From Escherichia phage JLBYU08: a stretch of 64,000 nucleotides of DNA. The notes beneath the pieces were generated by a model. The model was not told the DNA's origin. It was given only the letters and a program-made list of their open reading frames with translations, and made no database searches. The translations under genes and the position numbers were made by a program. The DNA is taken from sequence record OK272482.1; one strand, written 5' to 3'. Shown piece after piece: positions 7,688 through 64,000 of the stretch (positions are counted from its first letter, which is position 1; each line of letters opens with the position of its first letter).

Positions 7688-8506
7688 TTGAGCAAGAAAG
7701 AGTCCAACGACAAATATTACACAAACCCTGAGTATGCAGAATATCTTGTTGGTAAAGTAAAAGATAAGTATGGAAATTGTGCATACGTTGAGCCTTCTGC
7801 TGGAAGGGGTTCTTTTTCAAAACTATTTTCAGAGATACTGTCTTACGATCTAGTACCAGATCCTGAATTTGAAGGACCAACACCGTGCATTCAGGCAAAC
7901 TTCTTGGAGGTGCATCCCAAGGCAGATGTCTTCATAGGTAACCCACCATTTGGCAAGAATTCATCTTTAGCTTGCAAATTCTTTAACCATTGTGCATCAT
8001 TGCTAGAGCTTGGAGGGGCTATAGCCTTCATCTTGCCACGGACATTTGAAAAAATATTTTTTGCAAACAAACTGGACATGTCGATGCACCTTGTCTACAG
8101 TGAAAGGTGCCCTAAGAACTCGTTTCTACTTAATGGCAAACCTTATGACGTGCCGTGTGTTTTCCAAATTTGGGAGAAAAAGGCGTGCAACAGGGATCCT
8201 GTAGAGATTGGGGAGAATAAGTTATTTTCTTTTAGCACTCCAGATGACTACGACTTCTGTGTAAGACGTGTTGGGTATAATGCTGGAAAAGTATTGGGGG
8301 AGGATGACCCAAAATCTGAAGAATCAACATATTTCATAAAATCTTTAGTTGACGGTGTTGACAGAGTGTTTGCTGAATGCTATTCTTCTTTTCAAGAAGA
8401 AGCAGGTAAGACTGCCGGAATGAAGAGTATAGGTAAGAAAGAACTACAATACATTTTGGAGACTAGGTATGATCAAAAGCATAGACTTGACCAAAGAACT
8501 TACTGA
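7688..8506 (+). CDS. DNA N6-adenine methyltransferase
   Basis: Motif I VEPSAGRGSF then motif IV FIGNPPFG; start set at TTG 7688 after GGAGG (track start 7658 lies inside terminator hairpin). Confidence 0.6.
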   Translation: MSKKESNDKYYTNPEYAEYLVGKVKDKYGNCAYVEPSAGRGSFSKLFSEILSYDLVPDPEFEGPTPCIQANFLEVHPKADVFIGNPPFGKNSSLACKFFNHCASLLELGGAIAFILPRTFEKIFFANKLDMSMHLVYSERCPKNSFLLNGKPYDVPCVFQIWEKKACNRDPVEIGENKLFSFSTPDDYDFCVRRVGYNAGKVLGEDDPKSEESTYFIKSLVDGVDRVFAECYSSFQEEAGKTAGMKSIGKKELQYILETRYDQKHRLDQRTY

Positions 8507-8927
8507 TGCAAAAGCTTTTGGTGAGACAGCGGTACAAAGGGGGCAGGCGATGGGACTGGCACTACCTTTCGTATTAAAAGAGCACTTTACAGATTTTCAA
8601 CTTATCAAGGGTGATAAGGGAATGCTTATCCTGGAGCATAAGTTGAGTAAGAAACGCTATAAAGTTGTTTTTAATTCTAAAGCTCCAACAAAACTGGGAT
8701 TCAGAACTTACAATCTTAACCCATCCTACACTAAGGGTGTTGGAAGGGTAGAACAACAGCATTTCAGTGCCAGAGCTTCTTTAGCCCCTTTGATGCTAAA
8801 TTTCTCAGGGGTGGCTTTAGGATACCTTGATAAGAAAAGAGTTCTTCATGTCCGTTTAACAGACTTTGTAACGCTTCTAGCCAACAACGAGGTTGATGAA
8901 AAGGGACGTGTAAAAACAAACTTCTAA
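8469..8927 (+). CDS. hypothetical protein
   Basis: 152-aa ORF, no recognisable motif. Confidence 0.4.
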   Translation: MIKSIDLTKELTDAKAFGETAVQRGQAMGLALPFVLKEHFTDFQLIKGDKGMLILEHKLSKKRYKVVFNSKAPTKLGFRTYNLNPSYTKGVGRVEQQHFSARASLAPLMLNFSGVALGYLDKKRVLHVRLTDFVTLLANNEVDEKGRVKTNF

Positions 8928-8954
8928 TAACGCATAGTATGATTGGAGAACGCA

Positions 8955-9146
8955 ATGACACTAAAGTTAACAATTCCAGACAGCTTTTCAGAAGACTTTA
9001 TCCCAGAAATGATGGGTAAGATGCGATCATTGCTTGATCAGATCGAGGAAGCTGTTTGGGAAGACGATGCTGTAGTGGCTAACGAGCTGGTAGATAAGTG
9101 TAAAAGTATTATTGATGCAGTTGAAGAATACCACGGAGGTTTTTGA
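8955..9146 (+). CDS. hypothetical acidic protein
   Basis: ATG 8955 in frame with track ORF 8943. Confidence 0.4.
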   Translation: MTLKLTIPDSFSEDFIPEMMGKMRSLLDQIEEAVWEDDAVVANELVDKCKSIIDAVEEYHGGF

Positions 9147-9760
9147 TGGATATTATTGTTCTTAACGCCCCACCCAGCAGTGGTAAGGATCACATTGCAG
9201 ATCTCTTGTTGGAAGCTATTCCTAACTCACACCACCGTGAGGTTAAGGAGATGCTCTTCAGTGTGGCAATTAAGGCAGCTGGTGTAACTCCTCAACTCTG
9301 GAATGCACTTTATGACCGCCACTACAAAGAAGAGCCTTGCCCTTTCTTAATGATAGACGGCAAGCATGTTTCTCCGCGAGAATGGATGATCCATTGTAGT
9401 GAAAATCTGATTAAACCTATCTTTGGTGAAGATGCTTTCGGTAAAGCCGCAGTCGCATCTTTGAAGAAAGATTTCCCTAAAGGTAAAGGGGTTGTTGTTT
9501 ACTCCGATGGTGGATTCAAAGAGGAGCTGGCATGCCTTAGCGAGTACGCGTACAGCACAGGTGGAGATCTGTTGTTGTTCCGTATTCACCGTGTCGGATA
9601 TGACTGGGGAAATGATTCCAGAACCTATCTAAGTCTGGAAAAGAACGGAATAAAAGGAATTGAGTTCGATGTTGTAAACCCTGAAGGTGCACCTTGGGAA
9701 TGTGCATCGGAGATTGTGTGCAAGTATATTGATGCTAAAGAGGCCCAAGAAGAATGTTAA
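9143..9760 (+). CDS. P-loop kinase, dNMP kinase-like
   Basis: N-terminal NAPPSSGKDHIADLL resembles T4 gp1 LSGVKRSGKDTTADF. Confidence 0.5.
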   Translation: MMDIIVLNAPPSSGKDHIADLLLEAIPNSHHREVKEMLFSVAIKAAGVTPQLWNALYDRHYKEEPCPFLMIDGKHVSPREWMIHCSENLIKPIFGEDAFGKAAVASLKKDFPKGKGVVVYSDGGFKEELACLSEYAYSTGGDLLLFRIHRVGYDWGNDSRTYLSLEKNGIKGIEFDVVNPEGAPWECASEIVCKYIDAKEAQEEC

Positions 9761-10347
9761 TCGGTATTGATGTAGATTTGACACTGGTAGATTCAGGAAC
9801 AGCATGGTGGGAGTGGTTGGAGCGTTTATATGGTCCAGCCAGTAAGACAGTCACTAAACCTTCTAATGGGTTAATGTATTACGATCTGTCAAAGTATTGG
9901 CCTGATCGCCCCAAAGAAAACATCATAGGGCCTTTTGATTTCTGGAGTGACCCGTTCCTCTACGACTTTCTTAAGCCTGAAGAGGGGGCTATTGAGGTTA
10001 TGAAAGATTTGGTGGCTCGTGGTCACAAGCTTGCATTTATCTCGGTATGCAAGAAAGGTCACCTTGCATCTAAATCAAGGTTCTTAAAGCGTTGGACTAG
10101 TGATTTTATGGATCTGGACGATCACACCCAGGGTCACGGCTTCTACGCCACGCATTTCAAGGGAAATGTGGCTGTAGATGTTATAATTGACGACAGGCAT
10201 GAATACCTGAACCAATTCGCTTCACGCCCTGAAGTTATTAAAATCCTAAAAGATACGCCTTATGAGCAATTTGAGGAGTTAAAGGTTAGTGTTGACTATA
10301 CCGCTAATAGCTGGTATAAAATAGGAAAGTTTTTAGAAGGTATTTGA
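9754..10347 (+). CDS. HAD-superfamily phosphatase, 5'(3')-deoxyribonucleotidase-like
   Basis: HAD motif I GIDVDLTLV at N-terminus, IIDDR motif near C-terminus. Confidence 0.6.
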   Translation: MLIGIDVDLTLVDSGTAWWEWLERLYGPASKTVTKPSNGLMYYDLSKYWPDRPKENIIGPFDFWSDPFLYDFLKPEEGAIEVMKDLVARGHKLAFISVCKKGHLASKSRFLKRWTSDFMDLDDHTQGHGFYATHFKGNVAVDVIIDDRHEYLNQFASRPEVIKILKDTPYEQFEELKVSVDYTANSWYKIGKFLEGI

Positions 10348-10348
10348 A

Positions 10349-10549
10349 ATGGGCAGATGTTCTAAAGGTGGCGATCCTGTAGTCAGATACGGTGACTGGC
10401 TAGAGGTGTATGATCTGGGAGGTAAGCTGGTGTATGCCTCCAGGATCACCCAAGACATGTGCTCCGATATGTTCAACAGATACCTTGCATTTAAGGCCAA
10501 CATAAACCCAGACGAAATTTCCAAAATTAAAACAAGGAGAGCTAAATAA
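10349..10549 (+). CDS. hypothetical protein
   Basis: 66-aa ORF, stop overlaps thyX start. Confidence 0.4.
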   Translation: MGRCSKGGDPVVRYGDWLEVYDLGGKLVYASRITQDMCSDMFNRYLAFKANINPDEISKIKTRRAK

Positions 10550-11532
10550 TGCTAAAACTGTGCACTGCAAAGATCATTGCTGACAGCATTTCCGAGAAAG
10601 GTAAGCGCATCACAACTTTTGAGCTAGAGTATCCTCGAATTATTCACTCAGAGCTTATGACGCACCGAGTGTTCAGCCGAAACGCCATGTCTTCCCGTGC
10701 AGTGCCTGTCGGAAAGATGCTACAACAGATTGTGGAGAATCCGGCAATGCCAGTTCGCTTCGGTGTAAATAAGCGAGGAATGGAAGATGGTGGGGAACAC
10801 GATCAAAAGATCCGTGTAGAGTACACTGATATGGAGCTAACTCCGGAAGAGTTTTGGAAAGAAGCTGCAAAAAACGCCGCTTGGCATGCAGAGAAGTTTG
10901 CCCTTGCTGGTTACCATAAGCAAGTATGTAACCGCTTAGTGGAGCCTTTTCAGCGCATGAAAACAGTTGTAACAAGCACCGAGTGGAATAATTTTTTCCA
11001 CCTCCGTTGCTGGCACGATGCGGATCCTACGATTCAGATGTTAGCTAATTGTATGTGGGAGGCTCTTGTGAATAGCACTCCTGAAATCCTTAAACCGGGT
11101 CAATGGCACACTCCATATGTAGAGCACGTTTATTTGGACGGGGAGTTTAACTACGCTGTACGTGACACAGAAGGAAAGCTCTGCATTCTCGATACTAAAG
11201 AAGCTCTGTCTATCAGTGCTAGTTGCTGTGCACAAGTATCTTATCGAAATATTGACAGCACGTTTGAAAAGGCAGACAGTGTGGCTAAAAAATTGATTGG
11301 TGGGGATCGTATTCATGCAAGCCCTTACGAGCACCAGGCAACACCTATGGATCACGATAACGCAATGGAACGTTTAAACTACTACCTGTCTTCATGTGAA
11401 ATCACACAAGACATCAGTACTTGGCAGGAAGGTGTAACCCATCAAGACCGTGATGGTAAATTCTGGTCTGCCAACTTTTGTGGGTGGGTTCAGCACAGAC
11501 AACTGCTTAATAACCACTTCGTGAAAGGTTAA
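10549..11532 (+). CDS. thyX: flavin-dependent thymidylate synthase
   Basis: ThyX signature RHRxxxxxxxS (ELMTHRVFSRNAMSSRA). Confidence 0.8.
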   Translation: MLKLCTAKIIADSISEKGKRITTFELEYPRIIHSELMTHRVFSRNAMSSRAVPVGKMLQQIVENPAMPVRFGVNKRGMEDGGEHDQKIRVEYTDMELTPEEFWKEAAKNAAWHAEKFALAGYHKQVCNRLVEPFQRMKTVVTSTEWNNFFHLRCWHDADPTIQMLANCMWEALVNSTPEILKPGQWHTPYVEHVYLDGEFNYAVRDTEGKLCILDTKEALSISASCCAQVSYRNIDSTFEKADSVAKKLIGGDRIHASPYEHQATPMDHDNAMERLNYYLSSCEITQDISTWQEGVTHQDRDGKFWSANFCGWVQHRQLLNNHFVKG

Positions 11533-11561
11533 TCCTATCACAGCGATAGGTAACTTTTGTG

Positions 11562-11590
11562 TTGACTAATAGTATTAGATAATCTATAAT
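11562..11590 (+). promoter_or_regulatory. sigma70-like promoter (TTGACT-N17-TATAAT)
   Basis: Consensus hexamers in thyX-downstream intergenic. Confidence 0.55.
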
Positions 11591-11618
11591 AATGGCTCAC
11601 TTTGTTGGTGAGCCAGAA

Positions 11619-12092
11619 ATGGAGACAGATATGAGTAATGTTATGATTCCTAAAAAGACATTTATTTCAGTTACTTTGGATTTCCTATCTACCGTTCCCG
11701 GGTTTAACGTTCGCACACGAAACGGTCTCCGAGCTGCACTCTTTGCCGTAGGGTTTGATTTAAAAAGTATTGATGTTCTTCGTGGAAAAAACGTTCGATG
11801 CAAAAATAAGCCAACACATTATCGAAAGGCAGATGTATTTGCTGGTGTCATGCGTGCAGACTTTAGATACCCGCAAATGTATAACGGTGTAGATATTTTA
11901 GATGTGGATAAAGCACCTGGTGAGGCAATGCTTGTTCAAGATCTTCCGTATGATATTCCTGTAGAGGATCGTGTTAATGTAAGAAAGTATACAAAACAAT
12001 CTGAAAAGGCTGAAGATATTCATATTGTTGATGAACCTTTCAATTTTGAAGATCTGCATCGCCTGGAAAAATTATTCGGTATTGAAAGCTAA
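11619..12092 (+). CDS. hypothetical protein
   Basis: ORF; start set at first ATG downstream of promoter (alternative 11631). Confidence 0.45.
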   Translation: METDMSNVMIPKKTFISVTLDFLSTVPGFNVRTRNGLRAALFAVGFDLKSIDVLRGKNVRCKNKPTHYRKADVFAGVMRADFRYPQMYNGVDILDVDKAPGEAMLVQDLPYDIPVEDRVNVRKYTKQSEKAEDIHIVDEPFNFEDLHRLEKLFGIES

Positions 12093-12102
12093 GGTGGTGA
12101 AG

Positions 12103-12333
12103 ATGAGTCATAACTCCAAGTGGAAGGATCTTGGTTTTGCAAGTCGGTCAGAGTATGTTGGTTGGCTTTGGTTCAACGGCCTGACAAACGATATTAAAAT
12201 GTATGATGATGTTTATTATGACGAGTATACAGGCAAAATTATAAATATCTCTGTAGAAGAGGATACCTTTATCCAGCAAGATACTGATACCTGCCTTGAT
12301 AAATACGTTGATGAAGTGGAGGAAGCAAATTGA
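12103..12333 (+). CDS. hypothetical acidic protein
   Basis: ATG 12103 preceded by GGTGGTGAAG. Confidence 0.4.
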   Translation: MSHNSKWKDLGFASRSEYVGWLWFNGLTNDIKMYDDVYYDEYTGKIINISVEEDTFIQQDTDTCLDKYVDEVEEAN

Positions 12334-14645
12334 TCACCAAGGTAATTAAAAGCAACGGATGTGAAGTGGCATTCGATCCAGAACGTTTAAATAAGGCAGC
12401 TATTTTCGGTGACGACGGTAACGGCAATTGGTCACATATTGCACTGGATGCATACAAACGACTGTATGATGGATGTACAACCAAAGAAGTTAACCAAGCT
12501 ATCATAGACTCCTGTGTTAGCCGTAAAGACGAAGCACATTCCCGTATGGCTGGTCGTGTTCTTATTGGTCAGATTTATAAAGAGGCTTTTGGAGGGTTTA
12601 CAAAGATCCCTTCCTTACCATCATTTTACAACGACATGGTTGAGAAAGGGTATTGGGAGGATATGGGATATAGCTTTACCGAGCTAAACACTTTAGACGC
12701 TGTTATTGACCACAGTAAAGATCTCGGTTATGGCTATGCAGTCCTTAAACAGTTTCGCGACAAATACGGGATCAAGGATACTCTTAAAGACACCTTGTTT
12801 GAATCTCCCCAGATGATGTTTATGGGGATAGCAATGGCTGTCATGAAGAATATGCCGAAAGAACGTCGTATCAACGATGTTGTAAAATTATACACTTATC
12901 TGTCCGACTTAAAGATCAATGCCCCGACACCGTACTTAAACGGGCTGCGCACAGGTAAGACAGGGTATGCATCTTGTTGTGTAATAAAAGCTGACGATAC
13001 AGCAAAATCTATTGGTGTGGCACGTGAAGTTGCGTACACAATGACGGTTAACCAAGCAGGTATCGGCTACTATTTATCATCAAGATCTGCAGGTGATGGT
13101 GTTCGCGGTAACACTATTAAACACATGGGTAAGATTCCATATTATCGAGGTATTGATGCTGGTGTTAAGGAGAACAGACAACAATCACGTGGCGGTTCTG
13201 CAACAGTATCATTCCTTGCACTGGACCCGCAGATTGATGAGCTAATCCGTTTGAGAAACCCTATGACTGTTGCTTCAAAAAGAATCAACACCATGGACTA
13301 CTCCATCGGTATTAATAGGTCGTTTATCAACCGTGTGGCTAAGAATTTAGATTGGATGCTTGTTTCTTATAAGCACGCTCCTCAACTGCATGAGGGTATC
13401 TTCACCATGTCTATGGAGGAGTTCGATGCAGAGGTTGAGCGTATTGCTAAAGATGACAGTATTCCTAAGACATGGATCCGGGCTAGAGATCTTGCTGTTG
13501 AGCTGATCACGCAGCGTACTGAGGTGGGAAGGCTGTACGTATACTGGACAGATGAGATGAATAGACATACACCTTTTAAAGATGTGATCTATTCAAGCAA
13601 CCTGTGTGCAGAAATAGCCCTCCCGACAAAAGGCTATTCAGATATGCGTAATATCTTCAAGTACGATGTTGATGATGGTGAGGTTGCATTGTGCTTCCTG
13701 TCATCTCTTGTAGCTGGAAGGGTTACCCCAGAGGAGTATGAGGATGTTGCATACTACACGGTGCTTATGATTGACAATGTTATGGAAATCATGACATATC
13801 CGTATGAAAACATGGAGAGTACTGTTAAAAAACGCAGATCCATCGGGGTTGGCCTTACCAATGTTGCACATTTTATTGCCAGCCACAAGGTTACTTACGG
13901 ATCTCCTGAAAGTAAACAGCTTGTTCACGATCTTGCAGAACTTCACAGCTACAGCTTGCATAAGGCAAGTTTACGGTTGGCAAAAGAGCGTGGTGTCTGC
14001 GAGTGGATGTATAAAACAAAATATCCAGAAGGTTGGTTACCAATCGACACTTATAACAAAGAGGTCGATAGTGTGGTGAAAGATCCTTCTCTTAAACAGG
14101 ATTGGGAAGGGTTACGTAAAGAAATCATTGAAAATGGTGGGCTACGTAATAGCGTTCTTGAAGCATATATGCCTAATGAAAGCTCTTCGCTGGCAACAAA
14201 CACCACTAACGGGGTTTATCCTGTCCGTGAGCACATTATCTTTAAAAAGTCGCCACAAGGGCAGGTGCTGTTTATCGTTCCTGAATACGATGAGTTGAAA
14301 GAGTATTACACTTCGGCTTGGGACGTTGATACTAACGACATGATCGATATGTATGCTGTGATTCAAAAATTCACAGGTCAGGCAATCAGCGCGGATTTAT
14401 ACATAGACTACACCAAGTTGAAAGATGGTAAAATTTCAATGAAGGAGCAGCTAGGGTACCTTATCCGTGCCACTAAATTCGGGATGAAGACATGGTATTA
14501 TTTAAACTCTAGGGTTGGTGCTGGTGACTCCTTGGCAGAGGAACTTCATGCCAAGAAACAGGCTGAAGATGAAACCAGAAAGAACTATCCTTTGATTGCA
14601 GATAGTTCAGTTGAAGATCCGTATTGCGAAAGCTGTGCACTATAA
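12330..14645 (+). CDS. nrdA: ribonucleotide reductase class Ia large subunit
   Basis: ATP-cone at N-terminus, NLCAEI active-site block, C-terminal tail with Cys pair (CESCAL). Confidence 0.9.
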   Translation: MITKVIKSNGCEVAFDPERLNKAAIFGDDGNGNWSHIALDAYKRLYDGCTTKEVNQAIIDSCVSRKDEAHSRMAGRVLIGQIYKEAFGGFTKIPSLPSFYNDMVEKGYWEDMGYSFTELNTLDAVIDHSKDLGYGYAVLKQFRDKYGIKDTLKDTLFESPQMMFMGIAMAVMKNMPKERRINDVVKLYTYLSDLKINAPTPYLNGLRTGKTGYASCCVIKADDTAKSIGVAREVAYTMTVNQAGIGYYLSSRSAGDGVRGNTIKHMGKIPYYRGIDAGVKENRQQSRGGSATVSFLALDPQIDELIRLRNPMTVASKRINTMDYSIGINRSFINRVAKNLDWMLVSYKHAPQLHEGIFTMSMEEFDAEVERIAKDDSIPKTWIRARDLAVELITQRTEVGRLYVYWTDEMNRHTPFKDVIYSSNLCAEIALPTKGYSDMRNIFKYDVDDGEVALCFLSSLVAGRVTPEEYEDVAYYTVLMIDNVMEIMTYPYENMESTVKKRRSIGVGLTNVAHFIASHKVTYGSPESKQLVHDLAELHSYSLHKASLRLAKERGVCEWMYKTKYPEGWLPIDTYNKEVDSVVKDPSLKQDWEGLRKEIIENGGLRNSVLEAYMPNESSSLATNTTNGVYPVREHIIFKKSPQGQVLFIVPEYDELKEYYTSAWDVDTNDMIDMYAVIQKFTGQAISADLYIDYTKLKDGKISMKEQLGYLIRATKFGMKTWYYLNSRVGAGDSLAEELHAKKQAEDETRKNYPLIADSSVEDPYCESCAL

Positions 14646-14652
14646 TTTTAAA

Positions 14653-14672
14653 GGGGCTTCGGCCCCATTTTA
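14653..14672 (+). terminator. weak terminator/attenuator between nrdA and nrdB
   Basis: Hairpin GGGGC-TTCG-GCCCC then ATTTTA. Confidence 0.4.
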
Positions 14673-14683
14673 GAGGTAGAATA

Positions 14684-15772
14684 ATGGCTGTATTTAATGC
14701 TGAGAACACCGCTCATAAAACTGGTGACTATCCGCTGTTTCTGGGACAGCAAATGGGTATGTACGACTCTATCAACAAAAAATATCCACAACTGTTTGAA
14801 CTATACAAAAAACAAAAAGAGCAAGATTGGGCAGAGGATGAAGTGGATTTGTCGCAATCTATTTCAGATTTTGTAACATGCTCAAAGTCAACTTATGACG
14901 TGATGGTGCAGACCTTGATGTGGCAATGGGAGGCTGATAGCGTTGCGGCAAGATCGATCATCTGCCTCTTTTCACCATTCATCACTAATAGTGAGCTTTT
15001 CACTCTATTGATGAAACAGTCAGAGATTGAAGTTCTTCACGCACTAACTTACTCAGAGATTGTTAGACAATGCCTCCCCAATGCCCGTGAGATTATAGAA
15101 GAGATTCAGGAAAACCAAAACGTTCTGAGCAGATCCGGCGTTATTGTCAAATACATGCAAGAGCTTGAGGTTATTGGTGCAAAATACCGACTGGATCCTT
15201 CTAGTGTTGAAGAAGATATTGTGCGGAAATGCATTCTTAGAGCGCTTTTTGCACTTTTAGCCCTGGAAAGTATTGAGTTTATTGCAAGTTTTGCATGCAC
15301 TTTCGCAGTAGCTGAACAGGGTATTTTTGTTCAGGTGGCGCAGCTTGTTCAAAAAATCATGCTTGACGAAATGCTACATTCGAAAGGTGATTTTGCCATC
15401 ATTGATATCTTGCTTAACGATCCCGCATGGGAGAAAAGCTTCCTGGAGATAAAAGGGGAGTTAAAAGAGATTCTTGATGAAGTACGAACCAAAGAGTACG
15501 GTTGGAGTGACTATATTTTCAGCGAAGGAAGAGCGATTATAGGTCTTAACTCACCGTTGCTTAAAGAATGGGTTGACTATAACTGTTCACCGATTTATGA
15601 TTACTACGACATCGACAAAGACTTTGTGCCGCCAACAAAGGACCCGCTACCGTTTATGCAGGTGTGGATGAAACCTTCATTGCAACAGACGGCGAACCAA
15701 GAAATGTCGAACACTGACTACCGCGTCAACACAACTGTTAACGACGCTGAAGAAGAAATTTGGGAGTTTTAA
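14684..15772 (+). CDS. nrdB: ribonucleotide reductase class Ia small subunit
   Basis: Ferritin-like di-iron protein follows nrdA; RBS GAGG before ATG 14684; C-terminal acidic tail (EEEIWEF). Confidence 0.85.
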   Translation: MAVFNAENTAHKTGDYPLFLGQQMGMYDSINKKYPQLFELYKKQKEQDWAEDEVDLSQSISDFVTCSKSTYDVMVQTLMWQWEADSVAARSIICLFSPFITNSELFTLLMKQSEIEVLHALTYSEIVRQCLPNAREIIEEIQENQNVLSRSGVIVKYMQELEVIGAKYRLDPSSVEEDIVRKCILRALFALLALESIEFIASFACTFAVAEQGIFVQVAQLVQKIMLDEMLHSKGDFAIIDILLNDPAWEKSFLEIKGELKEILDEVRTKEYGWSDYIFSEGRAIIGLNSPLLKEWVDYNCSPIYDYYDIDKDFVPPTKDPLPFMQVWMKPSLQQTANQEMSNTDYRVNTTVNDAEEEIWEF

Positions 15773-15775
15773 TAT

Positions 15776-16054
15776 ATGAGCTGCGAAAAATCTTTTTTCA
15801 TCATCATTTACGGTAAGGATAACTGCCCACATTGTGTCAGAGCAAAAGAATTTGCAATCAGCAAAGGTCTGCCTTTTGTATATAAGACACTTGGCGAGGG
15901 ATACACAAAAGAAGAGCTTATTGAGAAGTGTAGTCCAATCGTCCCCAGAACGTTGCCGCAGATCTTCTTAGAAAGCGATCTTGACAGTATCCATATAGGC
16001 GGTGCCGACGATTTCATCTCTTTTGTTAAGAATGGTTTTGGAGAGAAAAAGTGA
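15776..16054 (+). CDS. glutaredoxin/thioredoxin-like redoxin
   Basis: CPHC active site in MSCEKSFFIIIYGKDNCPHCVRAKE; sits between nrdB and nrdD. Confidence 0.75.
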   Translation: MSCEKSFFIIIYGKDNCPHCVRAKEFAISKGLPFVYKTLGEGYTKEELIEKCSPIVPRTLPQIFLESDLDSIHIGGADDFISFVKNGFGEKK

Positions 16055-18174: not shown

Positions 18175-18237
18175 TTCTTGACAAAAGCCACAAGGATGTG
18201 GCATATTATTGACACACAGTGAGCTAGGAGGTGCAGT

Positions 18238-18824: not shown

Positions 18825-18827
18825 TTG

Positions 18828-18857
18828 TTGACAAAGCTTTGTTGAGTTGGTTATAAT
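18828..18857 (+). promoter_or_regulatory. sigma70-like promoter (TTGACA-N17/18-TATAAT)
   Basis: AGTTGTTGACA -35 context shared with promoter at 20219. Confidence 0.55.
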
Positions 18858-21748: not shown

Positions 21749-22282
21749 ATGACTTGTGCTAGAAAACCTGATGAACAACGTAACGCCTACGATGAGTATG
21801 TGACACCGGAGTGGTGTGCAGAAGGGCTGTATGACCTTATTCCGTTCCCAGAAGACTGGACCTACTTAGAGCCTTGCAGGAATAGTGCCTCAGGTGTGTT
21901 CTACTCCCGTATGCCGTTAGGATCTGCATGGGGAGAAATACAAGAAGGTGTTGACTATCTGAATACAGAATACAACCATGTTGACTGTATTATCACCAAC
22001 CCACCATACAGCCTGGCTCGTGAGTTTGTAGACAAGGCGTTGAAAGATGCTGACGTAGTTATTATGCTTTTGCGTCTTAATTTTCTGGAAAGCAAAGCCA
22101 GATTTGAATGGTGGCTTGATAATGCACCTACTACTGTGATCACAATATCTAAGCGTCCATCATTTCAATCAAACGGCAGAACTGACGGGCAAGCATATGC
22201 ATATTTTGTGTGGGATAAGAAAAACCGTTTAGACTTGCCGCCGTTTATGTGGTTGGCACCCCCAGAGGTAGACCTGAAATGA
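21749..22282 (+). CDS. phage-type DNA N6-adenine methyltransferase
   Basis: DCIITNPPYS catalytic motif in a small (177 aa) protein. Confidence 0.6.
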   Translation: MTCARKPDEQRNAYDEYVTPEWCAEGLYDLIPFPEDWTYLEPCRNSASGVFYSRMPLGSAWGEIQEGVDYLNTEYNHVDCIITNPPYSLAREFVDKALKDADVVIMLLRLNFLESKARFEWWLDNAPTTVITISKRPSFQSNGRTDGQAYAYFVWDKKNRLDLPPFMWLAPPEVDLK

Positions 22283-23510: not shown

Positions 23511-24047
23511 ATGCTTCTGATTAACTGGGAAGACCTCTATGGGGACAAAGACCCTGTTGCGTTTGTTGATCGTAGGTGGAGATACACTGAAGAACAACTG
23601 GCGGCAAAAAATTTAACTGCAAAACGCAGAAAGATCATCCAGTGCAAGTACAAATACGCACAGTTTGCTGCAAAAGTGTCTCCACAAATCGAGAGCTTTG
23701 TGCTTAAATTGTATGACGAGTACCTCAAATTCAAATTGGATTTTGTGCAGGTGTACCGTGCACAGGTACGACCAGATACCAACATATGTAGATGGAAGGT
23801 TGTTTGTGAAGGTAAAGATTTGCCGCTCAGCTTGACAATTGAGTGGCGTTATGGGTATCATGAGTGTGGTCTGTATGATATTTGGGATGTCATTGTAGAT
23901 CCTGCTAAGCATCTGAACACAGAGGAGCTGGAATATATCAATAAGGTTATTCTCGATATGTTTTTCAGCTACACACATGAAAACTCTGAGAAAGAACGGG
24001 ATAATTTTCTTGACACCCTCAGCGACCATTTGCAGTGTACAATTTAA
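23511..24047 (+). CDS. hypothetical protein
   Basis: ATG 23511 in frame with track ORF. Confidence 0.45.
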   Translation: MLLINWEDLYGDKDPVAFVDRRWRYTEEQLAAKNLTAKRRKIIQCKYKYAQFAAKVSPQIESFVLKLYDEYLKFKLDFVQVYRAQVRPDTNICRWKVVCEGKDLPLSLTIEWRYGYHECGLYDIWDVIVDPAKHLNTEELEYINKVILDMFFSYTHENSEKERDNFLDTLSDHLQCTI

Positions 24048-55998: not shown

Positions 55999-56014
55999 GT
56001 GTTGATAGTTTACA

Positions 56015-56368
56015 TTAGTGACAATCACCCCAATTACGACCACACAAGTATTCACCTGTGATCTGGAACGGGACTCCCATCATTTTAGAAGCTTGCCAGA
56101 AGCAATGTACCACCATTTCGCCCACAGGACTCCAGATAAGTTCAAGCTTTCCGTCATCGTTCAAGATAGGATCGTACACCGTGTTTCCGTCTCTGTCAAC
56201 CACTTCGTTTCCGTTTTCATCCTTGCGTGCCTTTTTGTACTTATGACCGTCGAACACATGAAGTTTGGCCTCCTGCTCTGCCTTAAATGCTTCCAATTCT
56301 TCAATTGTGTCGAAGGTGTACACAGTCTTATACTTCGGTGTGTCAGGTACTTGAAGCTGATATTCATC
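56015..56368 (-). CDS. DNA polymerase family A, exon 2 (C-terminal part including motif C Asp-Glu)
   Basis: Begins DEYQLQV and ends ...GEYLCGRNWGDCH, like the T7 gp5 C-terminus ...TEGKMGPNWAICH. Confidence 0.65.
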   Translation of the reverse strand, partial: DEYQLQVPDTPKYKTVYTFDTIEELEAFKAEQEAKLHVFDGHKYKKARKDENGNEVVDRDGNTVYDPILNDDGKLELIWSPVGEMVVHCFWQASKMMGVPFQITGEYLCGRNWGDCH

Positions 56369-56697
56369 CATCTGTTCAGGTAGGTCGTTAAGCTACCCCG
56401 CACCATTACGTGCATAGCCATACAGTTTCCTGTATGGATCGGACTACCTCACTGCCTTGGTAACAAGGCACCTCCCATTTCGACCGCACTTGCTGGCCTA
56501 CTCTACTCGCTTCTTCACACCAACCTATGTTGGAGCTATGCTTTCGATAGTCTCTGAACGTTCATCCTCTCGGATGCTTCGCTGCGGATTAGCATATTGA
56601 GCTTTTACCATACTCAGGTGTAAAAGTCAACTTAGCTTTCCCGTCAATTAAAGAGGTTATTCGACATAGATCACTCTATGAAGCCACAATGTTATTT
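56369..56697 (-). other. group I self-splicing intron (no internal ORF)
   Basis: Minus-strand core elements P AATTGACGGGAAAGC, Q AATCCGCAGC, R GTTCAGAGACTA, S GTAGTCCGATCC; exon 1 ends in U, intron ends in G; boundaries inferred. Confidence 0.7.
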
Positions 56698-59121
56698 ATG
56701 GTAATAGATAATACGACGGACACCTTCATCGTACCACCCACGCTTCACCATTTGGTGGTGCATGAGTATCCCAACTAAGTCACACAACGATGCACCACCA
56801 TTTTGTTGGTATGCATTAAGTAAAGAGTGTTTAGATCGGGTCCAGATGGCATGACCATCAAAAGAGTATATAAACTTCTTACCAGTTGCTTCCCAGAATT
56901 TCTCCAGATCCTCTTTACGCCCCTTAAGACCAGGGTTGGCATCCCAAAGCGCATCGATTACCCTTTGCCCCAACTCTGGAGAGATATCCAGCATGTCTGC
57001 AACTTTATCTTTTTGTGCCCCGTACATAACCCCATACGTGATAGGTTTACCGTCGTTACGGGACACCTCTCTGCCTGCTACTTTTGTATATGCCTCAGCA
57101 TTGTTTTGGTGTGCGTCCCCGTTACTTACAACATCATAATACAAGCCGTTGTCGAACTCAAAGGCACCCCAAGCCCCGATAAGCTGCTCTAAGTTGGACC
57201 CGTCAATACCGATCTCAAAGTATCCTGGAGGAACACCCCACAGACTACGCATCTCTTTACCCATAACCACTTTAGGAGATGGTTTAGGCATGTTTGCACA
57301 AATACTGTGTTTCTGTCGGGAAGTGTTTGTTAGCCCAGAACTTTTAGCAGGAAGCTTATGGTCAATCTTCAAACGTGGGTGATTAAGAAGACCAGTATCA
57401 ACCTTATCCTCCTTGATTGGATCAAGGACCGATCTGCGGTTTCGCAATGATAACCACAAGACGATATCTTTAGCCATCTCTCCGTTCAATTTTTCAAGAT
57501 TTGGGCATAGGTGTCCAAACGTATCTTTCAGCTGCGGAGAAGTAATAAGTGCTCTGGCTTTTCTACGTATTTTCCCGAATACTTCCTTTTTAATCCTTTC
57601 GGAGTTAGGAAAGCTTCGGAACTTGTGCACGGTTGTCTGAAACTTAGCATCAGTTTTGTTCCAGAAGTTGATAATCAGGTCACAATACTCTGACTCTAAA
57701 AGCTCGTCCATGTATGCATATACTCGTGCATCAACATCTGCATCAGGTAGAGCTTTCTTCTTGCTGTCTTTAGTTACATCCTTAGTTCTCCACATTGTCG
57801 GAAGCCAACCAGCACTGATCAGGTATCGCTTAATGTCGTCCTGATTGCTGATTTTCATAGGTATCTTGCAGTCCGGCATTCGCTTCTGCTGTAGATCACT
57901 TATTGCCTGATCCATCAGCTCTTTAGGTAAAGGTTGTGGTGTGGAAGTGCCCTTAATATAGCCTCTCAAGAAATCAGCCATCTTATCAGGGTCTTTGCAG
58001 CCCATCTCTTCACACCATTTTATCCCCATCTTGCTGACATCTCCTGTGGAGGTAAATGCTCGCTTAGGCGGGGCTTTGAACTCCAAAGCACTCATGTCCA
58101 CAGGATAGCCAAGCTTATCTTTTAACCATTTCCAACCATTGTTGGAGATTGTCCCATCTTGGTTAAACGGCTTTTCAGGGAACTTGGGCCGCTGAGACAT
58201 TGACAGCTCTTTTAAAGGAAGTTGAGGTTCAACACGATCAGCGATTTCTTTCATCCACGCATCGCAACGGTCACGTAAAGCAATAGCTCCATCTATGTCG
58301 AAGTATACACCCTGACGGGCCTGCAGCTCCATCAGGAAGTGCTGCAGCATGCCTCGACGTAGTGCGTTCTTCCAGGTGATCTTCTTGAACCCTTTCGGCT
58401 TCTCTTTGGCTGGATCGTACATAAAGTTCTGCATGTCAGATTTGCCGTAGAATACACCTTTTGATTCCGCTACCAGCTCTTTCCAGAGCAGCTCCTGGAT
58501 GATAACGTCCTCGAATACACGATCCACATACTTCCACAACGGAAGATCGCGCCAGTCATCAATTTGAACTTTCTGGTTACCAAGGGCGTAGCCCCATGCC
58601 ATAAGGCCGTGAGGACCAACAGGCTGCATTTTCTTAGTAACCGGGTTGAATACAGAGTCCGGACAACCTTTTGGTAAAGGGCGATCAGGCCACAAGATTC
58701 GGCTCATCGCCAACGTATCAAACAGGTTAACCTGGTGGTCGTTGATAGTCCCCATACATTTAGGATCACGGAACATATCAAAATGAATACCGGATAATCT
58801 CTCCATCAGCATAAAGTCATAACTGTAGCAGTTATGGCAGTTCAAAGCTGTTGGTGACCAGTCGGAATTGCCTGTAAGCCAACCCTCCAACTCTGAAAAA
58901 TCTGCTATGCGAACTTCAAAATCTTTATAAAAAGTTTTCTTTGCCAGAATAAAGTTCTTAGCCTTCTCTATATCCTCTTCGGAGTAGTGTGTGCGGTCAT
59001 TTAGAGGAAGGAACAGCATAAAACGGTTCTTATTCAGCTCTTTAAACAGGCCGCAGTGATAATAAAGATCTGGGTCTTCCAGCAAACCGGATGACTCAAA
59101 ATCGAACGACCACATGCTCAT
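56698..59121 (-). CDS. DNA polymerase family A, exon 1 (3'-5' exo and polymerase domains to the His of motif C)
   Basis: Exo I DFESSG at N-terminus, motif B KPITYGVMYGAQ; uninterrupted frame would stop 2 codons after the inferred splice site. Confidence 0.8.
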
Positions 59122-59179
59122 ATACAGTTCTCCTTAAAGGGGAGGTGGTTGTACTACCCCTCCCACTCTTTGTTAAACA

Positions 59180-61258
59180 TTAAAAAGGTGTTTCATCATC
59201 CTCAAAACCAGGGACCGGATCAGAGGATGGATCATCGTATTGGAGGTCTTCCTGCGTGTCAATAGGCTTGACAGTGGGTGTTACAACCTTATCAGCCACA
59301 ACCTTGCCCATAGGTGTTTCTACAACTGCATGCTCCTGATCCTCAAACATAGCCTGAGGTCTCCAAACAACCTCCCCACCTTCTCCGTCTGTGAACATCT
59401 GCATTTCTTTGTCCCAGTACCAATTACTGGCATCATAGAACTTACCTGTATGCGGATCCATAACTAAAGTGTCAGCAATACCTAAAGTTTTTGCTGGACG
59501 GTTTTTAAGACCTACCAGACGGACACGTCCACGAGAACGATCCACCATTTCTTCGGCCTCGACACCTATGACTACCCAACTCAACTGTTCAAGCCCAGCC
59601 GATCCTCGCAAATTCTCTTTTCGCACAGGATACCAGAAAGGTAATGGGTTACCATCCTTGTCCTTAGGGGGCACAATCTCTGTACGTTTGAGGTGAGCGA
59701 TCACCAAGATAAACACGTTAAACTGCTTACAAAACGCAGCCAGTTGGGTCATAGCCATGTCCAGTTCTTTTCGCTCATCCTTAACATTAAGCCCTGAAAT
59801 TACCATGGACAGGTGATCCAGCACAATATAACGACAATGGTACAGGCAAACCATTTGCTTAAGCTTGGTAATCAACTCGTCCACTGGAATAGACCCGAAA
59901 TGTTTGAACACTTTGATTTTTCCAGCTTTTGCCCATGATTGGTGAATCTCTGCGTGTTCTTGATCAGTTAAAAACTGGCTAGGATCTTCAACAAACTCTT
60001 TAACATCAAACCCTAACTGGTTTGCATACAAGGAGTTAATTGCTTCCTCTGGGTCCTCCTCAAGATGAATCATGCATAGACGATCATCCTCTTCATAGTC
60101 ATCGGCCTTCGGGCATGTCGGGTCCATTAGGTATCTTGCAATACAGTGTTCCAGTTTTTTAGCCACGGTTGTTTTACCGCCGCCTGATGGACCTGTAAGC
60201 ATTACAAGTGTCCCTTTGTGCAAGCCTTTTAGCATTTTTTGCAGTTTTGGGAACTCTGCACTGATATCTACCCCGTTGGAAGTCTTTTTCCGCAAAGACT
60301 CGATAGAGAAGTCTTCTAAATCCGACACAGCATCAGGCACATATTTAACAGGGTGCCGGAACATGTTGACAATATCTTCCAGCTTTTTAGCCTTCAGCAT
60401 GTCTCGGATATCTTTTACACCGTCAGGGTCATTTACTTCACCAGGGTATTCTACGTGGTAAACGTTATCAGCCATCAAAAATGCTGCGATATTGTGCGTG
60501 GCCTCAACACCTTTAATGACGTGTTTTTGCTTCTCTACCTCGTTAGCTGCATCGTTATCCATTGCCAGCACAACTGTTCCATAGCTACGGATAAACTTCT
60601 CATTGTTTGCAAAAGTATCTACTGCGTTTGCACATCCACAGTTAATTCCAACAAAAGGCAGGCAGGGTTTTCCTGCCAGATCACCACCGTTGATAACTGC
60701 GTCGATCCCGTCCTGGACCTCTTTAGCCCACTGCTTCACCTTTGCCGGGGCTTTAGCGTTGGTGAGAATCCCTTTTACTTGTATCTGATATGCAGCCTGC
60801 CATGCTGCAATAACATCACCTTCTCCCTCACAAACGTTAATCTGCTTACGGTTGTTGGAAGATGCACACAGCTTTTGACCAAACATCTGGGAGTTGGCCT
60901 TTACGATACCAACAACGGAGAAATGGCCCCTTTGCTCTTTAGGAATAGTCCAGTCACGCTTTTTGAAACCAGACAGATTTCCGTAGCGGTCGTAATATGG
61001 GAAATATGTTGCAGTGACTGTCACACCGTCTTCTTGGGACAATGCTGATCGCACACCAAAATATTGTGCAGCCATCAGACCGATATTTTGTTGTGGGACA
61101 GGGACAATTTTAGTATTTTCTAAAACAGTCTCTACAGTTTCAACTTCTTTTTCATCACGATAGTCTCGTTTCACACTTCCCCCACTTTTATACTTAGTTT
61201 CTTTCGGGTTTGGCTCACCGAAACGGTTGTATGCAGATGCCATAAATTTACTTCCCAT
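59180..61258 (-). CDS. DNA primase-helicase (T7 gp4-like)
   Basis: TOPRIM CEGEGD and MDNDAANE, Walker A LTGPSGGGKTT, Walker B IVLDHLSM. Confidence 0.85.
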   Translation of the reverse strand: MGSKFMASAYNRFGEPNPKETKYKSGGSVKRDYRDEKEVETVETVLENTKIVPVPQQNIGLMAAQYFGVRSALSQEDGVTVTATYFPYYDRYGNLSGFKKRDWTIPKEQRGHFSVVGIVKANSQMFGQKLCASSNNRKQINVCEGEGDVIAAWQAAYQIQVKGILTNAKAPAKVKQWAKEVQDGIDAVINGGDLAGKPCLPFVGINCGCANAVDTFANNEKFIRSYGTVVLAMDNDAANEVEKQKHVIKGVEATHNIAAFLMADNVYHVEYPGEVNDPDGVKDIRDMLKAKKLEDIVNMFRHPVKYVPDAVSDLEDFSIESLRKKTSNGVDISAEFPKLQKMLKGLHKGTLVMLTGPSGGGKTTVAKKLEHCIARYLMDPTCPKADDYEEDDRLCMIHLEEDPEEAINSLYANQLGFDVKEFVEDPSQFLTDQEHAEIHQSWAKAGKIKVFKHFGSIPVDELITKLKQMVCLYHCRYIVLDHLSMVISGLNVKDERKELDMAMTQLAAFCKQFNVFILVIAHLKRTEIVPPKDKDGNPLPFWYPVRKENLRGSAGLEQLSWVVIGVEAEEMVDRSRGRVRLVGLKNRPAKTLGIADTLVMDPHTGKFYDASNWYWDKEMQMFTDGEGGEVVWRPQAMFEDQEHAVVETPMGKVVADKVVTPTVKPIDTQEDLQYDDPSSDPVPGFEDDETPF

Positions 61259-62042
61259 TAATTCTGCTCCTTACTGCAGGCTCGTTTGCTAAGAATACGG
61301 CTTTTGCCCAGCCACGTGGTGTGAGGCTTCGGATCATCTTCGTTCTTGCACTCTTTCCACCCAGCTTGGCGTGTTGCATGGAATACCCGCTAACCGCGTC
61401 AACTATTTGCTGGACAGGTTTTGTGGCCGGGATTATAAATCCATTACCTATCCAGCCGCAAGTTATTTTTGGATAGGCATCACGTGGAGCTATAAATTCA
61501 GGAAACCAGGGGTTTACATCATCCTCCGGTAAATACCCGCCATAGTCAGAAGGGTGAAAACGGTAATCAGGTTTGCGCCACAGTGTGGACATAACACCCA
61601 CAGGATTCTCTACATGCCACGGGCAATCGTAAATCTCTCCCAACTCTTCTGCAACCCGAGCATCCTTTACAGCATTAATCTGGATCAGCGGGTCCTTAGC
61701 CAGCTTCTTCTTAAAGTGTGCAGCACCTGACACCGCTAAGTGGGTGCACGGAGGAAATGCAAGAACAAAGTCCGGAGCTGGGTACATGCAGAAAGTTTCC
61801 TGAGGGAACCATGGATCAATCCAATAATCTACATAGTGAATATTTGGATGATCGGTGATCACCTCTGCATAACTGCCGTGGTCAGCACCTTCTGCGTTAA
61901 AGCACAGGCACAGATATCCAGCTTTTGCCCAGTCAATGACTGCACCGCCAGATCCGTCAAATAGACTCCACACAACACCTTTGTGGTAGTGTTCTTTATA
62001 GATAAATTTCAATTTGCTGTCTCCTAATGCAAAAAGCCCCAC
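61248..62042 (-). CDS. DNA cytosine-C5 methyltransferase-like protein
   Basis: Motif I LFDGSGG, PC motif FPPCTHLAVSG, ENP motif VENPVG; short for a C5 MTase so assignment is tentative. Confidence 0.45.
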   Translation of the reverse strand: MGLFALGDSKLKFIYKEHYHKGVVWSLFDGSGGAVIDWAKAGYLCLCFNAEGADHGSYAEVITDHPNIHYVDYWIDPWFPQETFCMYPAPDFVLAFPPCTHLAVSGAAHFKKKLAKDPLIQINAVKDARVAEELGEIYDCPWHVENPVGVMSTLWRKPDYRFHPSDYGGYLPEDDVNPWFPEFIAPRDAYPKITCGWIGNGFIIPATKPVQQIVDAVSGYSMQHAKLGGKSARTKMIRSLTPRGWAKAVFLANEPAVRSRINGK

Positions 62043-62063
62043 CCTTTCGGGCAGGGCCTAGTG

Positions 62064-62546
62064 TTAAACCCGGATACCTATTGTATACTCGGTGGATACC
62101 AATGTCAAATCTAAATTTAAAATTTCTTGCATCTCATAGTATGCATCCAGGGTGAGATACATTTCCCCATCCTTTTCTACATACTTGTCAAGGTGTTTGA
62201 GGCACTTTGGATAACTATTAAGGGCAGCCTTTAGGCACTCAAACTCTGTGCTGTTGATGAATCCTTCCATCTTGGCTACCCGTTCTGGGGTAACGATAGC
62301 ACTGTAGTGAGATTTAGCTTCCTGAATGCAATGGGTCCAAGCATCAACTTTCTCTTCGAAAAGTCCGAAGAACTTCTTTTTGGTGAGCTTCAGATTCTTT
62401 AAGTGCTTAAGCACTCGGTTGCCGATCACAGATACATCACGAAACTTAAAGATCACTTTGTCAATATCCTCGCGGCCTATTTTTACAAAGCAAGCCTCGC
62501 ACATTTCAGGAGAGGCATAACCTACTTTCCACATAAAATCTGACAT
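62064..62546 (-). CDS. hypothetical protein
   Basis: 160-aa ORF. Confidence 0.45.
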   Translation of the reverse strand: MSDFMWKVGYASPEMCEACFVKIGREDIDKVIFKFRDVSVIGNRVLKHLKNLKLTKKKFFGLFEEKVDAWTHCIQEAKSHYSAIVTPERVAKMEGFINSTEFECLKAALNSYPKCLKHLDKYVEKDGEMYLTLDAYYEMQEILNLDLTLVSTEYTIGIRV

Positions 62547-62558
62547 AACACTCTCTCC

Positions 62559-62954
62559 TTATTCCTGAAAAGCAACGATATCATATGCACTTACCAATGA
62601 TTCCGGTGAAGAATGACTCCAGTCCAGGTTATCAGAGTATCCAGCGTGCTGTGCACCGCTACGTAGTTTGTATTTTACCCACTTACCTGGTGCAGGGTTT
62701 TCACCACCTTCCCATGCTTCCCAGTCTTCTGACAGGCCGTCCTGAGAGCAGTCATCCACTTCACTGATAATCTTAGGGTTTGGCACCAAGATCCCTGCAG
62801 GCTCCTCCTTCCGGATAAGTGTCCACACAGCGTAGGTGTCTGAGCAGGCGCATGATAGCAAAGTATATCCACTATTTAGAACTTCTGCAAGCTCTTTTTC
62901 AGCATCTTCCAATTTGGTTAAGTGGTATTGGATAATCTTCACACCTGTAATCAT
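62559..62954 (-). CDS. hypothetical protein
   Basis: 131-aa ORF. Confidence 0.45.
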   Translation of the reverse strand: MITGVKIIQYHLTKLEDAEKELAEVLNSGYTLLSCACSDTYAVWTLIRKEEPAGILVPNPKIISEVDDCSQDGLSEDWEAWEGGENPAPGKWVKYKLRSGAQHAGYSDNLDWSHSSPESLVSAYDIVAFQE

Positions 62955-63298
62955 CAGAAACCTCCCACTTCTTCAGCAAATGCAGCTGCTGTCGTCGCTG
63001 CATCCAGATAGGACTCTAGTTCACGAGCTGCACGTTTGTAAATTGAGTGGCGAATATCGTTTGGCAGTTGGTGGAAGTCCACCTCTTCACCGTTGCGGTA
63101 AACATGCACATCAGTGATCTGTCTAAATCCGTAATAGTCAACATCAGAATCACGGCACTCCGGGTCTGGCAACTGGACAACTGCCTGAGCTTCTACAGTG
63201 AACATATCGTCAAGTTCGAAATCGATTTCAAAAGTGTATGGTTTATAACGTTTCATCATTTGATTGTACTCTTTATTGATCAGACTTATCTTTCGCAA
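62954..63298 (-). CDS. hypothetical protein
   Basis: 114-aa ORF. Confidence 0.45.
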   Translation of the reverse strand: MRKISLINKEYNQMMKRYKPYTFEIDFELDDMFTVEAQAVVQLPDPECRDSDVDYYGFRQITDVHVYRNGEEVDFHQLPNDIRHSIYKRAARELESYLDAATTAAAFAEEVGGF

Positions 63299-64000
63299 TT
63301 AAGGTCGGGGCAAGTTTGTAATAACGGAAGCCACCACCACCTTGCCAGTTTACAGACTTAGAAATACCACCTTGATCTTCACCGTCGATCACTTTTTCCA
63401 AGCGCGGAATAATATGGGTATGACAATGATCACCTAGCTCGATTGAGATCCAACATCTTTTCATCTTGTGAGCTACAGCGGCGGTAGTTCCCGAACCACC
63501 GAATGAATCCAATACCAAATCACCTTCTCGCGTACACATTTCGAAAATCCGCTTCAAAAGCGCTTCCGGTTTTTTCCCATTTTTGAAACTAACGCCGCCT
63601 TCATTTGCTATTCCATTCCAACTAATGTCTGTCCAAACATCAGTTATCAGTTCCGCAGGTTGCATCTCACCATCAATTTCCAAAAGCCTGTTGGAGTAAA
63701 AGACCATTTGCCTACCATTTGCGATATAAAATCCTTCAACATCCTCATTTGGATGTACATAAACCTTATCTCTATCTTTCTTTGACTTCTCTATAGTTTC
63801 TTTTCTCTTTATTTTAGCACCACCACCAATTGCAACAGATTGAAATACACGTTCTGCATTATCAATTGCGAATTGTGCTAATTCATCATCGAATGTATTA
63901 GGCAGTTTTTTCTTGGCTTCTTTTGCATCTTTATAGCCATTGGCCTTTGCAAACGCATCGGCAATACCGCACCACGTCCAATTTTTATAATGGTCGTCCG
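63273..64000 (-). CDS. beta-class DNA methyltransferase (N4-C/N6-A), 5' end beyond window
   Basis: KPEALLKRIF...LVLDSFGGSGTT (motif I at C-terminus); frame stays open to position 64000. Confidence 0.6.
   Translation of the reverse strand, partial: DDHYKNWTWCGIADAFAKANGYKDAKEAKKKLPNTFDDELAQFAIDNAERVFQSVAIGGGAKIKRKETIEKSKKDRDKVYVHPNEDVEGFYIANGRQMVFYSNRLLEIDGEMQPAELITDVWTDISWNGIANEGGVSFKNGKKPEALLKRIFEMCTREGDLVLDSFGGSGTTAAVAHKMKRCWISIELGDHCHTHIIPRLEKVIDGEDQGGISKSVNWQGGGGFRYYKLAPTLIAKDKSDQ

Follow-up and report, generated by a model that had tools for sequence, protein, structure and literature searches.

Sets of several DNA methyltransferases (MTases) in a single phage are already in print for related large myoviruses: four were described in the phi92-like phage BME3 (PMC12210895) and two in the Certrevirus CB7 (PMC7344957), where function was assigned from BLAST or from a single ClaI digest and the motifs were likewise not attributed to individual genes. 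Here we analyse the same kind of inventory in a 64,000-nucleotide stretch of Escherichia phage JLBYU08 (record OK272482.1; hereafter the window), which contains four such genes that we call MTases A, B, C and D. Our analysis implies that the window encodes four orphan, S-adenosylmethionine-dependent DNA MTases that modify the phage's own replicating DNA, and we give this reading a probability of about 0.8. It is best supported for MTase B, which is a GATC-specific DNA adenine MTase, as shown in a 99.4%-identical orthologue.

The window belongs to a Vequintavirus, an rV5-like E. coli myovirus. Megablast searches with positions 56000-64000 and 6000-24000 against the GenBank phages returned full-length matches of 96-99.7% identity to more than 110 Vequintavirus records, the close relatives including FFH2, EdH4, Murica and the phages Bas51-58 of the BASEL collection (among them WalterGehring, which is Bas51, JohannBauhin and EmilHeitz). 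All four genes are already named as methyltransferases in the BASEL, RefSeq and GenBank records of these near-identical relatives: in BASEL the label is "putative N6 adenine methyltransferase" for three of them and "Dcm-like C5 cytosine methyltransferase" for the fourth, while RefSeq uses "DNA methyltransferase" or "methyltransferase". The Bas51 record, read in whole, has exactly four annotated methyltransferase genes, all of them within the region equivalent to the window. The inventory is thus known and ordinary for this phage group, and the listing of four MTases with which a previous, sequence-only reading of the window had begun adds nothing to the existing annotation.

The closest experimental data come from a 2025 PLoS Biology study of retrons, in which all Bas51 escapers of retrons Asa1 and Squ1 mapped to an N6 adenine methyltransferase and the escape mutations D69G, D79G and T83P were rebuilt (PMC12548924). 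We translated all three Bas51 genes that carry this annotation and found D69, D79 and T83 together only in bas51_0176, which is therefore the gene studied in that paper and the orthologue of MTase B (21749..22282, plus strand, 177 amino acids). The two proteins agree at 176 of 177 positions (99.4%), and their genes occupy the same genomic place, after a ClpP-like protease gene. In the alignment of the B family T83 is invariant and stands directly before the NPPY motif, and D69 is nearly invariant. When N6-methyladenine (6mA) was called from nanopore reads of Bas51 virion DNA, GATC stood out in the sequence logo, and this signal was almost gone in the T83P mutant (PMC12548924). The published calls (Fig 4f source data/S4 table) amount to 1405 methylated adenines in GATC, 509 in GTAC and 576 elsewhere for the wild type, against 35, 511 and 349, respectively, for T83P (PMC12548924). 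In order to convert these counts to occupancy we joined four pieces into the Bas51 genome (140,659 bp), which has 703 GATC sites (1406 adenines) and 258 GTAC sites (516 adenines). Set against our site counts, the published calls correspond to 1405/1406 GATC adenines (99.9%) and 509/516 GTAC adenines (98.6%). The fall of the GATC calls to 35 in T83P shows that host Dam lags behind on the phage DNA, and thus that this is real self-methylation. The activity is known from Bas51, and MTase B itself, with its one amino-acid difference, is known here from its sequence.

The product of MTase B, G(6mA)TC on both strands, is that of the classical Dam enzymes (E. coli Dam and T4/T2 Dam; alpha class, PF02086). 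Unlike them, B is a gamma-class enzyme with the motif order X-I-IV (YVTP at 21797-21808, EPCRNSASG at 21869-21895 and NPPY at 21998-22009), has only 177 amino acids and lacks a separate DNA-recognition domain. Its family profile matches M.TaqI at 5e-5, while B itself gives no PF02086 match and stays under the cut-offs of PF05869 (19.2 vs 28.1), TIGR01712 (16.1 vs 97) and PF13651. B is therefore a functional analogue of Dam and not a member of the Dam family, and it is of interest as an enzyme without a recognisable recognition domain that is yet highly sequence-specific. Its role is probably other than anti-restriction, because GATC is not depleted (observed/expected ratio 0.99 in Bas51) and Dam+ E. 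coli cannot carry enzymes that cut unmethylated GATC. The E. coli host is itself Dam+, so the GATC methylation is not aimed at E. coli restriction enzymes. As candidate roles, B might keep MutH away from quickly replicating DNA, protect the phage in hosts that lack Dam, or disturb host processes that depend on Dam; the last would fit the reported toxicity of the Bas51 methyltransferase when it is expressed by itself (PMC12548924). The same study found that retrons Asa1 and Squ1 sense this methyltransferase via methylation of their reverse-transcribed DNA (PMC12548924). A further gene of that study is present nearby: the "putative glycosidase" encoded at 23511..24047 (plus strand), six genes downstream of B, is identical over 174/174 residues to bas51_0171, in which a premature stop, R87*, gives Bas51 escape from Asa1, not from Squ1 (PMC12548924).

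All four open reading frames (ORFs) named in the sequence-only reading are open and have the motifs that it claimed, and their PHROG matches are far above chance (E-values of 2.5e-129 for A, 8e-67 for B with phrog_799, 1.3e-86 for C with phrog_757, and 4.7e-29 for D). Its statement that the four are of different classes holds in so far as classes do differ; there are three of them and not four, since A and B are both gamma-class enzymes, C is a C5-cytosine enzyme and D is of the beta class. Only D exceeds a curated threshold (PF01555, 71 bits vs a cut-off of 26.7, E 1.8e-19). The assignments of A, B and C are based on PHROGs, profile searches and fold searches; searches of the PDB with their single sequences gave nothing useful, and only the profile and fold searches were informative. 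We also considered A and B as recent paralogues and rejected this, as their pairwise match is marginal (E 0.026).

A second mark on Bas51 DNA requires a second phage enzyme. The GTAC calls persist in the B mutant (509 in the wild type, 511 in T83P), and to our knowledge a GTAC methyltransferase is lacking in the K-12 and B strains of E. coli (which have Dam, Dcm, EcoKI or EcoBI, and a silent YhdJ); GT(6mA)C is therefore written by a phage enzyme other than B. The retron paper names no enzyme for this mark (PMC12548924). Our preferred candidate is A, at slightly less than even odds, with D as a possible but clearly less probable alternative; the remaining probability is shared by a cytosine mark of C that is miscalled as 6mA and by other causes. 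Palindromic GTAC was weighted to A over D because Mod enzymes, to which D is related, typically read short asymmetric sites. One could argue that the true mark is GTA(5mC), where 5mC is 5-methylcytosine, or similar, which C would make and the calling would misplace onto the adenine next to it, in which case A and D would have weak, other or no DNA motifs. In GTAC the called adenine indeed has a cytosine beside it, MTase C is still without an assigned motif, the 6mA model alone was run, and neighbouring modifications are generally known to give false positives in nanopore calling. However, about 99% of the GTAC adenines, on both strands, exceed a call frequency of 60%, which is unusually clean for spill-over, and such a miscall would leave two adenine MTases without a strong motif; we thus regard it as improbable. 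A literature search for Vequintavirus methylomes, 5mC data and GTAC enzymes turned up only the retron paper (PMC12548924), and the original rV5 paper is silent on methylation.

MTase A (7688..8506, plus strand, 272 amino acids) is a putative N6-adenine DNA MTase of the gamma class, TaqI-like, with a compact C-terminal target-recognition domain. It starts at a TTG codon with the Shine-Dalgarno sequence GGAGG ahead. Its motifs YYTNP (7715-7729; residues 10-14), EPSAGRGSF (7790-7816; residues 35-43) and NPPF (7940-7951; residues 85-88) follow the order X-I-IV of the TaqI/Eco57I type, and all three are invariant or nearly so in an alignment of 30 relatives. The Eco57I family PF07669 is matched at 15.5 bits (cut-off 25.3), and no NCBIfam match was found. 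In the AlphaFold model (mean predicted local distance difference test, pLDDT, 92) a catalytic domain and a C-terminal DNA-recognition domain are arranged as in M.TaqI, and the whole two-domain model (228-249 of the 272 residues) superposes only on M.BseCI, CamA, MmeI and M.TaqI, all of them DNA m6A MTases. With M.TaqI, M.BseCI and CamA it shares the motif order, the NPPF/NPPY loop and the two-domain architecture, 228-240 residues being superposed at 3.5-3.9 A. It differs from these enzymes in its size, 272 vs 421-579 amino acids with a recognition domain of about 100, and its identity to them is 15-18%. Phage homologues of A sit among replication genes; of four homologues on large contigs, two lie on T4-like phage contigs among clamp-loader genes, and the other contexts are ambiguous.

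The bacterial relatives of A point in the same direction. When one genome of each bacterial species was scanned, 80 loci with A homologues were found, and in 16 of these a same-strand ORF of 199-231 (about 215) amino acids lies directly downstream, at -39 to +10 nucleotides from the methylase stop; Poseidonibacter ostreae has one such pair. These partner ORFs form one conserved family (E16, K20, D42, S-I-K58, QRRLQCS) that has no match in Pfam, NCBIfam or a PDB profile search, and several of the methylase-partner modules are flanked by IS1595 transposases. Mobile pairs of type II restriction-modification (R-M) genes are laid out in this way, which speaks for DNA as the substrate of the A family, and the partner may be regarded, from its sequence and position, as a candidate for a new family of restriction endonucleases. 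The ORF that lies downstream of A in the window (8469..8927) has no relation to the bacterial partner, thus A is an orphan in this phage. Tentatively, these observations can be joined: A would be a "mini-TaqI" that writes GT(6mA)C, the bacterial homologues and their partner would be a mobile type II R-M family that has yet to be described, and the phage would have captured the methylase gene as an orphan antidote. This is the less probable course of events as it stands, though such a capture would fit GTAC being both depleted in Bas51 and fully methylated.

MTase D (63273..64000, minus strand) is cut by the end of the window, where it is open through nucleotide 63998; the part present is the C-terminal 241 codons of a 441-amino-acid, beta-class, type III Mod-like putative N6-adenine MTase. 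Motif I (FGGSGTT, 63483-63503) follows the target-recognition domain, which is the beta-class order, and the catalytic IDPPF (residues 72-76) lies outside the window and was seen in the 98%-identical, 441-amino-acid Bas51 orthologue. The full-length orthologue matches H. pylori Mod (1.4e-28), EcoP15I Mod (2e-24) and CcrM (5e-9). D thus has significant similarity to EcoP15I Mod and H. pylori Mod (6k0w) and shares their order of DPPF, recognition domain and FxGxG, but it is shorter than type III Mod proteins (441 vs 618-644 amino acids) and lacks an adjacent Res. No res gene is annotated nearby, the neighbours in Bas51 and FFH2 being a 114-amino-acid hypothetical protein, a DNA helicase and rIIB. 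D is therefore a Mod-like orphan and not a type III R-M system. Nor does it copy the specificity of EcoP1_I or EcoCFT_II, since these phages stay sensitive to both type III systems. In the window a 114-amino-acid ORF (62954..63298, minus strand) between C and D matches phrog_4240, of unknown function (1.8e-32), and weakly (3.3e-5) phrog_1573, whose annotation is "DNA methyltransferase"; its size is insufficient for a stand-alone methylase.

MTase C (61248..62012, minus strand) is a compact putative C5-cytosine MTase of 254 amino acids. The sequence-only reading had started it at a GTG at 62042, which would give 264 amino acids; the TTG at 62012 is the likelier start, with the Shine-Dalgarno sequence AGGAG and the 254-amino-acid length annotated in Bas51 and FFH2. 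Residue numbers given here follow the 264-amino-acid form (C99 is C89 of the shorter protein). The motifs are FDGSGG (61944-61961; residues 28-33), FPPC (61746-61757; residues 96-99), ENP (61602-61610; residues 145-147) and TPRGWAKAV (61296-61322), and in 30 relatives P97, P98 and C99 of motif IV (PPC) and the whole of motif VI (ENP, with Glu145) are invariant, and motif I (FDGSG) and a C-terminal helix resembling motif X vary little or not at all. The family comprises at least 3,522 clusters of 225-260 amino acids in which FDGSG, PPC, ENP and a C-terminal TPRG.A.AV are kept, and 1,502 of 50,697 phage records (about 3%) contain a member, among them Drexlerviridae, Dhillonvirus, Jersey-like phages and Klebsiella Webervirus.

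As C is so short, the sequence-only reading had suggested that it could be a different nucleotide-modifying enzyme, that is, one with a non-methyl transfer reaction or a non-DNA substrate. The absence of any PF00145 match at E <= 0.1, of other Pfam or NCBIfam matches and of a significant PDB sequence match would agree with this, as would the fact that tRNA is the substrate of DNMT2-type relatives of the C5 MTases; our literature searches brought up no data on cytosine modification in a Vequintavirus. The fold, however, speaks otherwise. For the AlphaFold2 model (pLDDT 86) the top 39 Foldseek matches in the PDB are all catalytic domains of DNMT3A/B (E 1e-5 to 6e-4, template modelling (TM) score 0.40-0.51), followed by the prophage C5 MTases 3g7u and 3lx6. 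C shares with them the C5-MTase fold, the triad of motifs I, IV and VI and a minimal target-recognition region in a domain of about 250-285 amino acids, at an identity of only 12-16% and a TM score of only about 0.5. The shortness of C is thus normal for the fold, because the DNMT3 domains are equally short and their recognition region is minimal too. Moreover, the FxGxG, PPC and ENP motifs and the C-terminal helix are conserved, 3 of 120 listed homologues have a precomputed PF00145 match, and the gene abuts the primase/helicase gene. It is therefore not likely that C has another chemistry or substrate, and the suggestion finds no support in our data. Judged from sequence and model, C probably makes 5mC at a short motif. 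We considered CpG as its target, to which the CpG odds ratio of 0.68 and the CA/TG ratio of 1.18 in Bas51 seemed to point by their look of 5mC deamination, and rejected it as a target common to the whole family, since in Dhillonvirus HK578, which carries a 52%-identical homologue of C, the CpG ratio is 1.28. In the same phage HK578 (25395..26976) a small methylase of 161 amino acids and a C-type C5 methylase of 231 amino acids are adjacent, beside a DNA helicase gene, so the pairing of a small methylase with a compact C5 methylase is not peculiar to Vequintavirus.

The sequence-only reading saw in the four enzymes a multi-specificity self-methylation that serves as an anti-restriction strategy. 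The self-methylation itself stands for adenine: virion DNA of Bas51 carries 6mA at about 100% of GATC and about 99% of GTAC, and is thus not unmethylated, the finding that would have spoken against the proposal. The general anti-restriction role is another matter. Orphan MTases of phages commonly protect against cognate restriction enzymes (Murphy et al. 2013, cited in PMC12210895), and the two enzymes with unassigned motifs might match natural R-M systems. However, phage plating on six cloned R-M systems showed the Vequintavirinae to be "exceptionally susceptible", without "any effective protection" against EcoKI, EcoCFT_I, EcoRI, EcoRV, EcoCFT_II and EcoP1_I, and in Drexlerviridae the MTase content was not linked to restriction resistance (PMC8594841). 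None of the six systems reads GATC or GTAC, so this result does not speak against a motif-specific protection; it does exclude a broad shield. GATC methylation would be useless against restriction in Dam+ enterobacteria, and general avoidance of restriction sites was not seen in the window, which has 365 GATC, 134 CCWGG, 24 EcoRV and 77 EcoP1 sites. GTAC alone looks like a restriction target: with a ratio of 0.59 it is the second most depleted 4-mer of Bas51, after CTAG (0.57), and the strongest enrichment (1.36) is that of the non-palindromic GTAG/CTAC. As GTAC is depleted and its remaining sites are essentially all methylated, the pattern fits a long-standing pressure from GTAC-reading nucleases. 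It is also an argument for a broad shield by all four enzymes as their main function, which on the whole we consider doubtful. Among the 5-mers of the Bas51 genome and the window CCWGG is the most depleted (229 observed vs 331 expected).

Taken together, the four MTases, encoded among genes for replication and nucleotide metabolism, would modify the phage's own replicating DNA as follows. B, as shown in its 99.4%-identical orthologue, methylates essentially every GATC adenine, host Dam being no substitute. An activity independent of B, seen in the Bas51 data, methylates about 99% of the GTAC adenines and may be that of A, a miniature TaqI-like enzyme with R-M-like bacterial relatives; C would add 5mC at a short motif, and whichever of A and D does not write GTAC would add a further adenine motif. 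These marks would protect only against nucleases that read the same motifs, with GTAC-reading restriction as a plausible selective pressure, and would form no general shield. The methylation also carries a cost, as the activity of B is the signal sensed by retrons Asa1 and Squ1.

Several points weigh against this reading. A, C and D were assigned from sequences and models, and A, B and C are under every Pfam and NCBIfam gathering threshold. The methylome data are those of Bas51 and not of the exact phage of the window; the GTAC calls come from one nanopore 6mA model only, and neighbouring 5mC or N4-methylcytosine could in principle produce them. The choice between A and D for GTAC is a judgement and not a result. 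In the bacterial loci, the GTAC ratio near A homologues was 0.68 with the partner ORF and 0.78 without it, a difference that is not significant (108 sites observed near the partner-bearing loci vs about 123 expected at the no-partner ratio, about 1.3 standard deviations), so we rejected site avoidance in these loci as a means to assign GTAC to A. Finally, the catalytic core of A most resembles METTL5, an rRNA methylase, and the archaeal homologues of that protein; by sequence profile the solved proteins nearest to A are Ta1320 and METTL5, both METTL5-type rRNA methylases. Some homologues of A are labelled "predicted RNA methylase". A could accordingly be thought of as a METTL5- or TrmN-like RNA m6A methyltransferase acting on rRNA or tRNA. 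We hold this to be unlikely: the METTL5-type matches span only the Rossmann core of about 150 amino acids, whereas the superposition of both domains is confined to the DNA enzymes; the two-gene, insertion-sequence-flanked modules of the bacterial homologues, with their conserved small partner, resemble R-M systems; the gene is found among replication genes in phages; and Bas51 has a DNA 6mA activity that is still unassigned.

Two further observations concern the surroundings of these genes and the records that match them. The DNA polymerase gene is interrupted at 56419..56707 on the minus strand, between ORFs 56015..56371 and 56692..59121, by an intron of group I (Rfam RF00028, 72.5 bits, E 2e-18). 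This intron lacks the HNH homing-endonuclease ORF that is present in the intron of FFH2 and Bas51, and a 735-nucleotide HNH gene found between polymerase and primase/helicase in these two phages is also absent in the window (59121 to 59180). Besides the Vequintavirus records, about 20-40 unannotated "Campylobacter phage" records with C. jejuni as host (MG065635, MG065644, MG065659 and others) are 97-99% identical to the window over many kb; these are probably mislabelled or contaminant assemblies.

Here we have identified the Bas51 gene of the retron paper and equated it with MTase B, converted the published counts to near-complete occupancy at two motifs, and shown that a second phage enzyme is required for GT(6mA)C. 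The evidence from structure and gene context for A as a miniature TaqI-type DNA methylase of an R-M-like family is a modest lead. All these are modest, testable points and do not amount to a new kind of system. They make two questions directly testable: whether A or D writes GT(6mA)C, and which motif is the target of the widespread compact C5 family. For phage therapy and engineering with rV5-like phages it matters to know which marks the virion DNA bears, since full methylation of GATC and GTAC decides the sensitivity of these phages to methylation-dependent nucleases and methylation-sensing retrons, as well as their protection from enzymes that read GTAC or GATC.

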